Assembly (NCBI GenBank): GCA_049999805.1
Contig: JBNGIO010002643.1
Coordinates: forward strand, 1 to 39,931
Direction of reading: 5' to 3'
Source of the DNA: Folioceros fuciformis
Taxonomy: Eukaryota
Length of the DNA: 39,931 nucleotides
Shown here: one piece after another, positions 6,759-23,154 of the stretch
Position numbering within the stretch: the first letter of the stretch is position 1
Layout: every line of letters starts with the position of its first letter
Notes under the pieces: generated by a model
The model's database searches: none
Told to the model about the DNA's origin: nothing
The model's input: the letters and a program-made list of their open reading frames with translations, nothing else
Made by a program: the position numbers and the translations under genes

Positions 6759-7398
6759 CTGTGCTCTTTCAATCGGTATGGTAAAGTCTACCTCTGCTCT
6801 TGCGCTGCCTGCCAATTACCTGTGCCGGTCGAACGTGCCTGTCCACGCAAATCCTCGAACCCACCGATGTTCGTAGAAAGTCCTGTCACCCTCTCATCAA
6901 TCTCTTCTTTGAGTGAAGCAAAGTGAAGGAGGTGACGGAGAAGTGAACATCCATCCAAGTGGCCAGTTTTCCGCCCCTGCCGAAACGAAACGAAACGAAA
7001 CGGGACTGCATCGCGATGTCACACGGCAAGCCGGTCCGGTTAAACTCGTTTATTCTATCCGAAGGAAAGGAGCTTAATTTGCCGATCGCGTGCCCTAGAT
7101 CGATGTAAGTTGTCGCTCTTGCGTCCCCTCCAAATGGGAGCTCATCATGATTTGTTGTAATTCTATGTGAACAGTCGTGATTGATTTGGTAGGACTTCAA
7201 TGACGGCAATAGTGCCAACGTAAGAGTGAAAAAAGGCCTAGAAGGTTCCAGCCGCAGGAAGTGCGCTCGAATCTACCCTAACCAGCAGGCAAGTCATTAG
7301 AAGAGTAAACGCCGGCTTGCACAGGCAAGCGTCGGAACGTTGAACGCTTCCCGACGACCGCGAAGTCACTATTCTTGTTAGTTTTCTTGTTTAAGGCG

Positions 7399-8682
7399 AT
7401 GGCTGTGAATCCCGAGCTGGAGTCGTCTGGCCTGCCGGTTCCCTTCTACAGTGAGTTCTTTCTGCTGTCGCGGAGCAAAGTGGAATTCCAAGTCGACAAA
7501 TTGTCCGAGTAAGCTTCATGCTGTGCAGCCTTGCTGTTGTTTTGGTGTGAAGACTGGTCGGGATCTGTCTTTAGTCAAGAGGCTTATGCTCGTGGAGGCA
7601 ACAATGCCTGGGTCACGAATTCATCTTTGCGCATCCTGGGAGTTAAGAGGGCCAGAAGGATTGCTGGATGGTTAGGGTAGATTCCGGCGTGGCTGGACAG
7701 CTAAGGGGAAGCAAGCAAGTAGGTGGTCGAGGGTGGGAAGCAGCAGCAGAAAGGTTTTTCTGTGCCGCGGTGGTCACCGTGGGCGTCCCTAATTTCTTTT
7801 TCTGATATGACACTCGGAAACTGCAGAGCGCCGGGTGGGAAGCTATCCGAACAGGGGACAATTTATCTTTCAACCGTTCGCTTGGTTTTCGTGACGGACG
7901 TGTATCATGGCGGTGCGGTGCGTGCGTTTGATTTGCCTCTGGTGAGTGAGCTCACAAACCTTGGGTTTGTTTGTACATCTTGGAGTTCTACTGGATTGGA
8001 CTCTCACGTGGTCTGGATCTTGTTCCTTGTGTAGTTGCACATACATGAGGAAAAATTCAATCAGCCTATTTTTTTCTGCAACAACATTACAGGCAAAGTA
8101 AATCCTGTAAGTTTCTTCATAAGGGATCATGAGAGCATAGTGTTTCACGTATGGCTTAGAACAGTTTGTTCATGCTGCTCCCCAAGGTCGGGTGTGTCGT
8201 GAGTTCGGCGAGGTGGCGTTTTCCCAAGCTGGTTGTAGGAACTGATGTTGAAAGCATGCCTTTCTGCCCTAGGTCATTCCTGAAGGACAAAATCCAGCAC
8301 TCTACTCTCCCCACTCTTTCAAGATTAACTTCAAGGAGGGTGGTGCGGGTACATTCATTCCTGTCTTTTTTAACTTGCTCAAGTCTCTTCGCCAAGCAGC
8401 CAATCCTTCAGCTCCCCCATCAGATCCTATTCCAGCGCAACAACCTGCATATGATGAAATGATAAGACATGCGTAAGAACTTTGCTCTTCCTAGTTGCCT
8501 TTGAGTTGGGTCCACAGGTTATGTTAAGTTGCAATCTCGGAGGACTCTGTTTTCTGACCAAAACTGTTGTGCTGCGCAGCTGGATAGACCCCAATGATCC
8601 CACGAGGCTGTACTTGCAACAGCCTCAGGAAATAACCAAGAGGCGACGCAACTACACTTCGAATGCTGAGGATGGATACTAA
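7399..8682 (+). CDS. WBP2/UPF0664-like PH-GRAM-fold protein; exons 7399-7508, 7827-7941, 8035-8106, 8273-8472, 8580-8682
   Basis: The splice model keeps frame: MAVNPELESSGLPVPFYSEFFLLSR...GTIYLSTVRLVFV...AFDLPL...EKFNQPIFFCNNITGKVNP...FKINFKEGGAGTFIPVFF...AWIDPNDPTRLYLQQP. These motifs match the plant WBP2-like family as I recall it. Confidence 0.85.
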
Positions 8683-10363: not shown

Positions 10364-10425
10364 CTCTCGTCAGCTCTGTCTGCGAGTGTGCTCTCGCCAG
10401 CTCTGTCTGCGAGTGTGCTCTCGCC
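10364..10425. repeat. Tandem repeat, 27-bp unit, ~2.3 copies
   Basis: The unit ctctcgycagctctgtctgcgagtgtg starts at 10364, 10391 and 10418. Confidence 0.9.
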
Positions 10426-10699
10426 AACAGGCCCGCGCGACCTACAAGTTCCGGCCCCAACGGCGGGAAGTTGCACGTATTGCCGATCTGGCGGCCATAA
10501 CGGGCGCGAGGCCCATCACGGGTCCACCCGCGAAGGACCACCTGTATGTAACAGACGGTTGTTGAGCTTCCTACTGGCGCCAATAATGTAGCCACTCTCA
10601 CCCACTTCTGCTCCGGTAGCAAAAATTCGTAGCATGTGGAATCGGGCTTGAAAGGGCTAATACCAAACTAACTTTTTAGGTGTTTGAATTTGGATTTAG

Positions 10700-11555
10700 A
10701 ATTTGGATACCAATAACTGGTACTATAACTTAGAGCGAAGTTCTGAGAAGAGCACAACTTTGCGACATAATTTAGAGACAAAATGTAATTGGGATGGGGA
10801 ACTTCTATCTAAACTTGTCACAACATAACCATCAAGAAAAAATCAAGATTAGTTATGAATTAACTAAGTGGGGAGGGTTTATATTGATTCAACAACACCC
10901 GATGACATTCGATCAAGCGATTGCGATAAAATGTCTTGGCAATCATTTAGGTTTTGATATCAGAATGGAATAGCCTTGATAATCTACTTTAGAATGCCCT
11001 GTCATTGCGAACTAGGTGTCCTTAGACATGTTTAATTAGCGCCAAAAACAGGAGTTGATTGTTTCCTGCAAAGACATTCCAACGTCTTCACAACAACACG
11101 AAAAGGGGGCTTGTTTAGAAAGAAGCTTGAGCAAGGTGTTGTTGTGAAGACGTTGGAATGTCTTTGCAGAAAACAATGAACTCCTGTTTTCGGTGCTGAT
11201 TAGACATGTCTAAGGATACCAAGTTTGCAATGACAAGGCATTATAAAATAGATTATCAAGGCAATTCCATTCTGATATCAAAACCTAAATGATTGCCAAG
11301 ACATTTTATCGCAATCGCTTGATCGAACGTCAACGGGTGCTGTTGAATCAATACAAACCCTCCCGACTTAGTTAATTTATAACTAATCTTGACTTTTTCT
11401 TGATGGATGTGTTGTGACAAGGTACGATAGATATTCGCAAGTTTAGATAGAAGGTCCCCATCCCAACTACATTTTGTCTCTAGATTATGTCGCAAAGTTG
11501 TACTCCTTCTCAAAACTTCGCTCCAGTTATAGTACCAGTTACTGATATCCAAATT
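10700..11555. repeat. Long inverted repeat IR1: arms 10700-11099 and 11136-11555, 36-nt spacer
   Basis: The arms are reverse complements over their whole length (e.g. gcaaagacattccaacgtcttcacaacaacac / gtgttgttgtgaagacgttggaatgtctttgc). Differences are mostly transitions plus one 20-bp indel. Confidence 0.97.
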
Positions 11556-22985: not shown

Positions 22986-23154
22986 TTCGAAAAAAAAGTG
23001 GGCTCTGTGTGATCGGGTTCCCTTGGCCCGCACTGCAGCGTCGACGGTCGAAAATGTTCCCCGTTCCTCATGGCGGTGAACCAACATCAATGGGTACGCG
23101 AACAACCAGGCTTGGCAGGAGAACCGATCACACAGATCCCACTTTTTTCCCGAA
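22986..23154. mobile_element. Short foldback / MITE-like element with ~35-bp terminal inverted repeats
   Basis: ttcgaaaaaaaagtgggctctgtgtgatcgggttccct (22986-23023) pairs with aggagaaccgatcacacagatcccacttttttcccgaa (23117-23154). No clear target-site duplication is visible. Confidence 0.45.

Follow-up and report, generated by a model that had tools for sequence, protein, structure and literature searches.

Two hairpins formed from a dead gene and its upstream region in Folioceros fuciformis, with an intact unlinked paralog as candidate target

The window analysed here is the entire contig C2643 (JBNGIO010002643.1; 39,931 nucleotides) of the Folioceros fuciformis assembly, which comprises 87 Mb in 7240 contigs. 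It carries a gene, here termed gene A, whose 3' part is doubled tail-to-tail in a long inverted repeat (IR1). Judged from its sequence, IR1 is one half of a two-hairpin rearrangement, the other half being an inverted repeat of the region upstream of the same gene (IR2), and gene A itself is a pseudogene; both points were missed by the original prediction for this locus, which concerned IR1 only. We consider it slightly better than an even chance (roughly 55%) that the locus is a double hairpin born of a rearrangement and analogous to the PAI1-PAI4 locus of Arabidopsis, from which small interfering RNAs (siRNAs) may reach an intact sister gene on contig C6145.

The left arm of IR1 (10698..11099, plus strand) is an inverted copy of the 3' coding part of gene A and of its 3' flank, segment D1. 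The right arm (11136..11555, minus strand) contains the last ~100 codons of the gene, whose minus-strand frame stops at a TGA (11258-11256), followed by 120 nt of D1 up to the loop, where the flank is cut at the breakpoint between D1 and its continuation, D2. The original prediction had described the right arm in just this way, as C-terminal coding sequence ending at 11256 plus ~120 nt, and is refined in one respect: the ancestral stop is a TAG two codons before the TGA. Because this TAG survives in the left arm (10971-10973) and in C6145, the TGA at 11256 is secondary. Repeat search and alignment of the arms (10700-11099 and 11136-11555) gave 369 identical columns among 399 paired ones, the differences being 30 substitutions, of which 22 are transitions and 8 transversions, together with two gaps of 1 bp and one of 20 bp. 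The 20-bp gap is equivalent to 11422-11441 of the right arm, and a single CTTG remains at 10814-10817; since the intact paralog has those bases, the gap is a loss in the left arm, as had been proposed together with the bounding cttg microhomology. The left arm is further marked by the two 1-bp indels and by a new in-frame TAG.

The IR1 loop (11100..11135, plus strand) has 36 nt. It starts with five bases of D2 and continues with a 32-nt piece (11105-11136) of the upstream region, U, whose native copy lies at 13186-13215. This loop is probably the remnant of one of ~350 nt resembling that of IR2. The repeat is long, gene-derived and able to fold: IR1 reached -617.5 kcal/mol, compared with -201 +/- 8 kcal/mol for 20 shuffles (z about -52), in line with the hairpin originally proposed, and the values for the two strands lay between about -620 and -630 kcal/mol. 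When the ends of IR1 and those of the entire block (10698-14424) were scanned for direct repeats 5-11 nt long, no target-site duplication emerged, the only matches being 5-mers that belong to the terminal sequence of the arm itself; together with the repeat search, this bears out the short loop and the missing duplication of the first description.

IR2 lies upstream of gene A. Its left arm (12240..13177, minus strand) is U in its native position and its right arm (13528..14424, plus strand) is an inverted copy of U. Between them, the 350-nt loop (13178..13527, minus strand) consists of a D2 piece (13527-13427) joined head-to-tail, at 13427-13432, to the far end of U (13432-13178), as established by matches to C6145 at 2485-2564 and 7191-8276. 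U was identified as the upstream region of the gene through C6145, where the link from U to the gene spans a gap of 100 N; its open frames have no Pfam match. The breakpoints of the two hairpins are reciprocal. The 3' flank is split into D1, with its end at 11136, and D2, which begins at 13527, and U stops at 11136 in the IR1 loop and resumes at 13528, the start of the IR2 right arm, with 8 nt lost. D1 and D2 were once contiguous, because in the left arm of IR1 the initial 5 nt of D2 follow directly on D1, and the same order is native in C6145 and C1328. The core arms of IR2 are identical at 610 of 657 positions, a proportion similar to the 369/399 of IR1, so the hairpins are of equal age. Moreover, three indels relative to C6145 (6, 10 and 15 bp) are common to both arms, which are therefore sister copies. 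On the simplest account of its origin, the locus would have started from a tandem array of a ~2.4-kb unit (U, gene A and 3' flank D1/D2), in which an inversion took place at the two breakpoints; the IR2 loop would then have flipped between the arms of that repeat, and the IR1 loop would have become shorter by a subsequent deletion. Switching templates twice could have had the same outcome. Through such an event, one inverted repeat would have taken in the 3' end of the gene and the other its upstream region, and the reading frame of gene A would have been lost at around the same time.

Alignment to the intact paralog (P0002) and translation define the gene A pseudogene at 11256..12021 on the minus strand. 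The first ATG is lost (ACG at 12021-12019), and the second (11943) opens a frame of 43 aa. In comparison with C6145 there is a net loss of 14 bp near 11846, a 43-bp duplication near 11654-11696 and a loss of 13 bp near 11560. The intact paralog expected under the original prediction does exist, as an open reading frame (ORF) of 272 aa on C6145. Between the two genes the ratio of nonsynonymous to synonymous change (pN/pS) is 0.29 (35/566 vs 29/136), and therefore the protein was formerly under constraint. Changes private to the arms are near neutral, with nine nonsynonymous to five synonymous in the left arm and four to two in the right. Taken together, these values suggest that gene A died around the time of the duplication. 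C6145 is an 8577-bp contig in which the first 1247 bp equal the last 1247 bp and which includes the 100-N gap; it is possibly a collapsed tandem of a 7330-bp unit in which the intact gene is accompanied by a broken PPR gene and by an older copy of U that has diverged. The proximal upstream sequence of gene A (12106-12435) also precedes a PPR gene at C6370:2815-3055.

A DNA search of the genome with the right arm found four places, namely both arms, C6145 and the distant C7082. Allowing at most two mismatches, 161 of 380 21-mers of the left arm and 255 of 400 of the right arm match the C6145 gene, which is thus an intact, unlinked ORF with enough identity to be a target. A slight match was seen to the C1328 flank (24/380 left, 9/400 right), and none of the 21-mers came within two mismatches of C6498, C3018, C7082, C6350 or C6155, loci that represent subfamilies and make up five of the other 28 family contigs. 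The matches thus support a single candidate target, C6145, and do not support family-wide silencing. Of the earlier interpretation, the gene-derived arms, the intact paralog and the rejection of a multi-copy element stand, while the idea that the gene A family is silenced in trans does not.

Regarding expression, run X4, which is RNA by our guess and comes from another sample, has contigs of the paralog type on U at a depth of up to 64, and one contig on the middle of the gene (depth 3.3) that is without the 43-bp duplication. If X4 is RNA, the intact gene type is transcribed. Among the matches listed for this run, no contig lies on the hairpin arms, and run X5 gave no matching contigs. Genes of the Dicer type are present in the genome, which has two Dicer-dimer loci as well as paired RNase III matches on four contigs. 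Under the reading we prefer, occasional read-through, on the minus strand from the gene A upstream region or on the plus strand from a neighbour's promoter, would produce long double-stranded RNA (dsRNA), which Dicer-like enzymes would cut; the resulting small RNAs would maintain methylation of the block and might reach the close sister gene on C6145, while the block itself would decay without visible selection.

The pattern of substitutions was examined after polarisation by C6145 in the four arms of both inverted repeats. The arm-specific changes comprise 40 C-to-T, five T-to-C and 15 transversions, so that the excess of transitions first read as a trace of cytosine methylation has a clear direction. 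Per site, change affected 10/136 CG (7.4%), 17/152 CHG (11.2%), 13/512 CHH (2.5%) and 5/1052 A/T positions (0.5%), the difference between CHG and CHH being significant (p=4e-5). In IR1 alone, 7/156 CHH sites changed compared with 2/356 T-to-C (p=0.004). The C-to-T pattern, an indirect signal, fits methylation, perhaps directed by RNA. A comparison of the arm branches with the paralog branch (p=2e-4) was discarded, the latter being unpolarised.

Several observations weigh against the PAI-like interpretation. The CHG/CG enrichment comes mostly from IR2, as IR1 alone has 1/32 CG and 3/24 CHG changes. In two sets of family repeats that are non-inverted or amplified, CG/CHG changes are also about 2.5-fold over CHH, and the margin by which the CHH changes of the arms exceed these two sets is borderline (p=0.053). 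Across the 13527|13528 junction, one X1 contig departs from the window after 13542, and the exact order of events is not fixable from one assembly. Finally, transcripts of PAI1 mostly stop at the centre of the inverted repeat (PMC3203196), and D1 may act likewise here.

An inert relic, with no transcription through the tip, no siRNA and a C-to-T bias due to ordinary repeat methylation, is unlikely but deserves to be kept in view. Gene A is a pseudogene, the second inverted repeat takes in its upstream region, and the similar, if milder, context bias in other family repeats means that the signature may be ordinary repeat methylation. Pairing also shows no sign of selection: G:U-preserving changes number 14 on the minus strand vs 8 on the plus strand (p=0.29), and the longest identical run between the arms is 64 bp (p about 0.1), neither being significant. 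In contrast, C-to-T change at CHH sites of IR1 is 8-fold over T-to-C per site, compared with 1.1-1.3-fold in the two baselines, which hints, on weak numbers, at RNA-directed methylation.

It is rather doubtful that the hairpins are a selected hairpin RNA (hpRNA) suppressor, kept to silence C6145 through cleavage of its mRNA by IR1 and methylation of its promoter by IR2, the target being a selfish or toxic HEPN-like RNase. The analogy with Drosophila hpRNAs, in contrast to maize Tpd1, makes a suppressor conceivable, but no sign of selection supports it. More speculative again is a wider version, in which an undescribed family of HEPN-like RNase-toxin type has undergone selfish expansion in a hornwort-like plant and adjacent hairpins suppress its members; the present locus would then be a two-pronged silencer of the intact sister, formed in one event with the 3' hairpin acting on the mRNA and the upstream hairpin on the promoter, as a haploid-dominant parallel to the arms race between hpRNAs and drive genes in Drosophila.

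A foldback transposon, or one with long terminal inverted repeats (TIRs) carrying the gene, is improbable. A subfamily represented by C6409 does have a gene between long inverted repeats, and Copia-like ORFs lie beside several members; however, copies of the IR1 arm were found only on C6145 and C7082 and as a short match on C1328 (counts that are lower bounds in a fragmented assembly). The search, within the same bounds, revealed no copies elsewhere in the genome that shared the ends but had other flanks. On both sides the flanks of the block are unique in the genome, and no transposase ORF occurs in 10700-14424. With no target-site duplication at hand, the many-copy element envisaged as a counter-case to the original prediction did not materialise.

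Two further explanations are very improbable. An assembly artefact or amplification chimera might be suspected because the tip of IR1 is spanned by none of the read-derived pieces among the matches listed and the assembly is in many contigs, but the arms differ by 30 substitutions and three indels, and the junctions are consistent with one coherent rearrangement. Contigs derived from reads of two DNA runs of one sample, possibly the assembly's own source, reproduce three parts letter-for-letter: 10418-10730 with the left junction, 10701-10937 from the left arm with its deletion, and 11270-11479 from the right arm. Another exact contig (14274-14637) takes in the block's right end; both arm versions and the outer junctions are thus represented. 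The read-derived contigs also hold U variants that are absent from the assembly (12240-13601, with joints at 12767-13036 and 13082-13624). A recently arisen MIRNA gene, yielding a single duplex by precise processing, would accord with the inverted-duplication route to plant microRNAs outlined in PMC5026261 and with the 7.5% drift between the arms; against it, Rfam microRNA matches at the tip are sub-threshold (best 40.9 bits, gathering threshold 200), and the mismatches are spread evenly, leaving no locally conserved duplex.

The family to which gene A belongs had no real match in sequence searches of Pfam, NCBIfam, PADLOC and the PDB, HEPN profiles included. A single-sequence word search was empty, as was an alignment search among longer proteins, which is a weak search; Atlas matches were all <=0.80, and Foldseek found no match at E<=0.001 in the pdb and viral sets. 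The best structural neighbours of its helical domain are HEPN-type chains, all short of significance at E<=0.001. A histidine is conserved in the family motif Y-x-x-L-S-x-H-[IV]-H. When 17 sequences were checked for R-x4-6-H, the histidine was well kept, with arginine in 3/17 and lysine in 6/17 and the following residue being T, V or I. P0005, a repeat-only match, was left out of the family alignments. The family may be an unannotated, constrained one of hornwort-like plants and ferns (Adiantum) with a possible HEPN-like fold. In the literature on hornwort hairpin or inverted-repeat small-RNA loci and on HEPN in hornworts and ferns, the locus and the family are undescribed, most subscription journals and supplements being outside the search.

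Inverted repeats whose arms measure 150 bp or more were seen in 4/20 family contigs and 0/20 control contigs, an enrichment that is not significant (p=0.11). Three of these four represent a single amplified unit, with the gene placed between inverted 1.3-kb copies of the sequence upstream of it. For the C6409 subfamily (C6409:2127-6676, C6350, C3889, C5469, C4974 and others), arm matches are present on >20 contigs. All 16 ends printed have fixed flanks, of one type in 10 and the other in 6; these are therefore not transposon ends, and a TIR reading of this subfamily was rejected. By eye, its ORFs open with a transit-peptide-like stretch. C1279 holds a family copy that is broken; its 3' part is directly duplicated over 341 bp, and there are four nested pairs of inverted repeats, of which the outer arm has a few dispersed relatives. 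Several family members adjoin gag or pol ORFs, presumably Copia-like by their motifs.

The remaining genes of the window, which we take from their motifs to be ordinary land-plant genes, include a DRG-type GTPase, NIP aquaporins, RbcS and a GDSL lipase. The NIP-like genes form a cluster with opposing orientations (16100-20150), and a short inverted repeat (22986-23154; 38-nt arms, 84%, 93-nt spacer) lies between the GDSL lipase and RbcS genes. A near-perfect palindrome of 54 bp (14429..14482), unstranded, abuts the right end of the rearranged block; no second copy of it was found in the genome. Elsewhere, the genome has an LCIB-family gene (C1919:3950-4891) and PLS-type PPR genes. Among land plants, LCIB is a marker of hornworts, and its presence points to a host of hornwort-like nature.

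Among described systems, the closest analogue is PAI1-PAI4 of Arabidopsis Ws (PMC3203196), likewise a tail-to-tail gene-derived inverted repeat in which 3' read-through would give fold-back dsRNA, with an unlinked paralog as candidate target and non-CG methylation expected. It differs in that here neither arm is part of a working gene and the doubling takes in no more of the coding sequence than its 3' ~300 bp, in the second inverted repeat over the upstream region, and in that the present locus is known from DNA sequence alone. In its origin the locus resembles the maize Mu killer and Ac composite insertions (PMC3440606; bioRxiv 10.1101/2020.01.07.897926), partial inverted duplications from complex rearrangements whose hairpins match transcribed plus terminal or upstream parts of the source; the source here appears to be a cellular-looking orphan gene rather than a DNA transposon, no TIR or transposase having been found. 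As a long hairpin with homology to one member of a fast-changing family that has expanded, the locus also recalls the Drosophila hpRNAs directed against drive genes (PMC10317233) and the maize Tpd1 hairpin (PMC11390486), although Tpd1 is the killer and not a suppressor. Unlike the Drosophila hpRNAs, the arms decay neutrally, and a role in drive would be by analogy alone. A target-derived fold-back beginning to drift is shared with the inverted-duplication origin of plant MIRNA genes (PMC5026261), from which the locus differs by having no sign of a fixed duplex. The gene A family may resemble the HEPN superfamily (PMC3710099) in its helical domain, HEPN-type neighbours and conserved histidine.

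By these comparisons the arrangement itself would be of an already-known kind (PAI1-PAI4 or hpRNA type), and interest would be added by the pairing of a coding with an upstream hairpin and by the undescribed, possibly HEPN-like family. The locus offers a clear natural case in which one rearrangement of a tandem unit appears to have produced a pair of hairpins, one from coding and one from upstream sequence, for which just one target can be identified. It also reveals a constrained gene family that had no annotation and may have a HEPN-like fold. Should small RNAs and an influence on C6145 be demonstrated, the locus would be a compact test case for the hairpin suppression of selfish genes beyond flies and maize.
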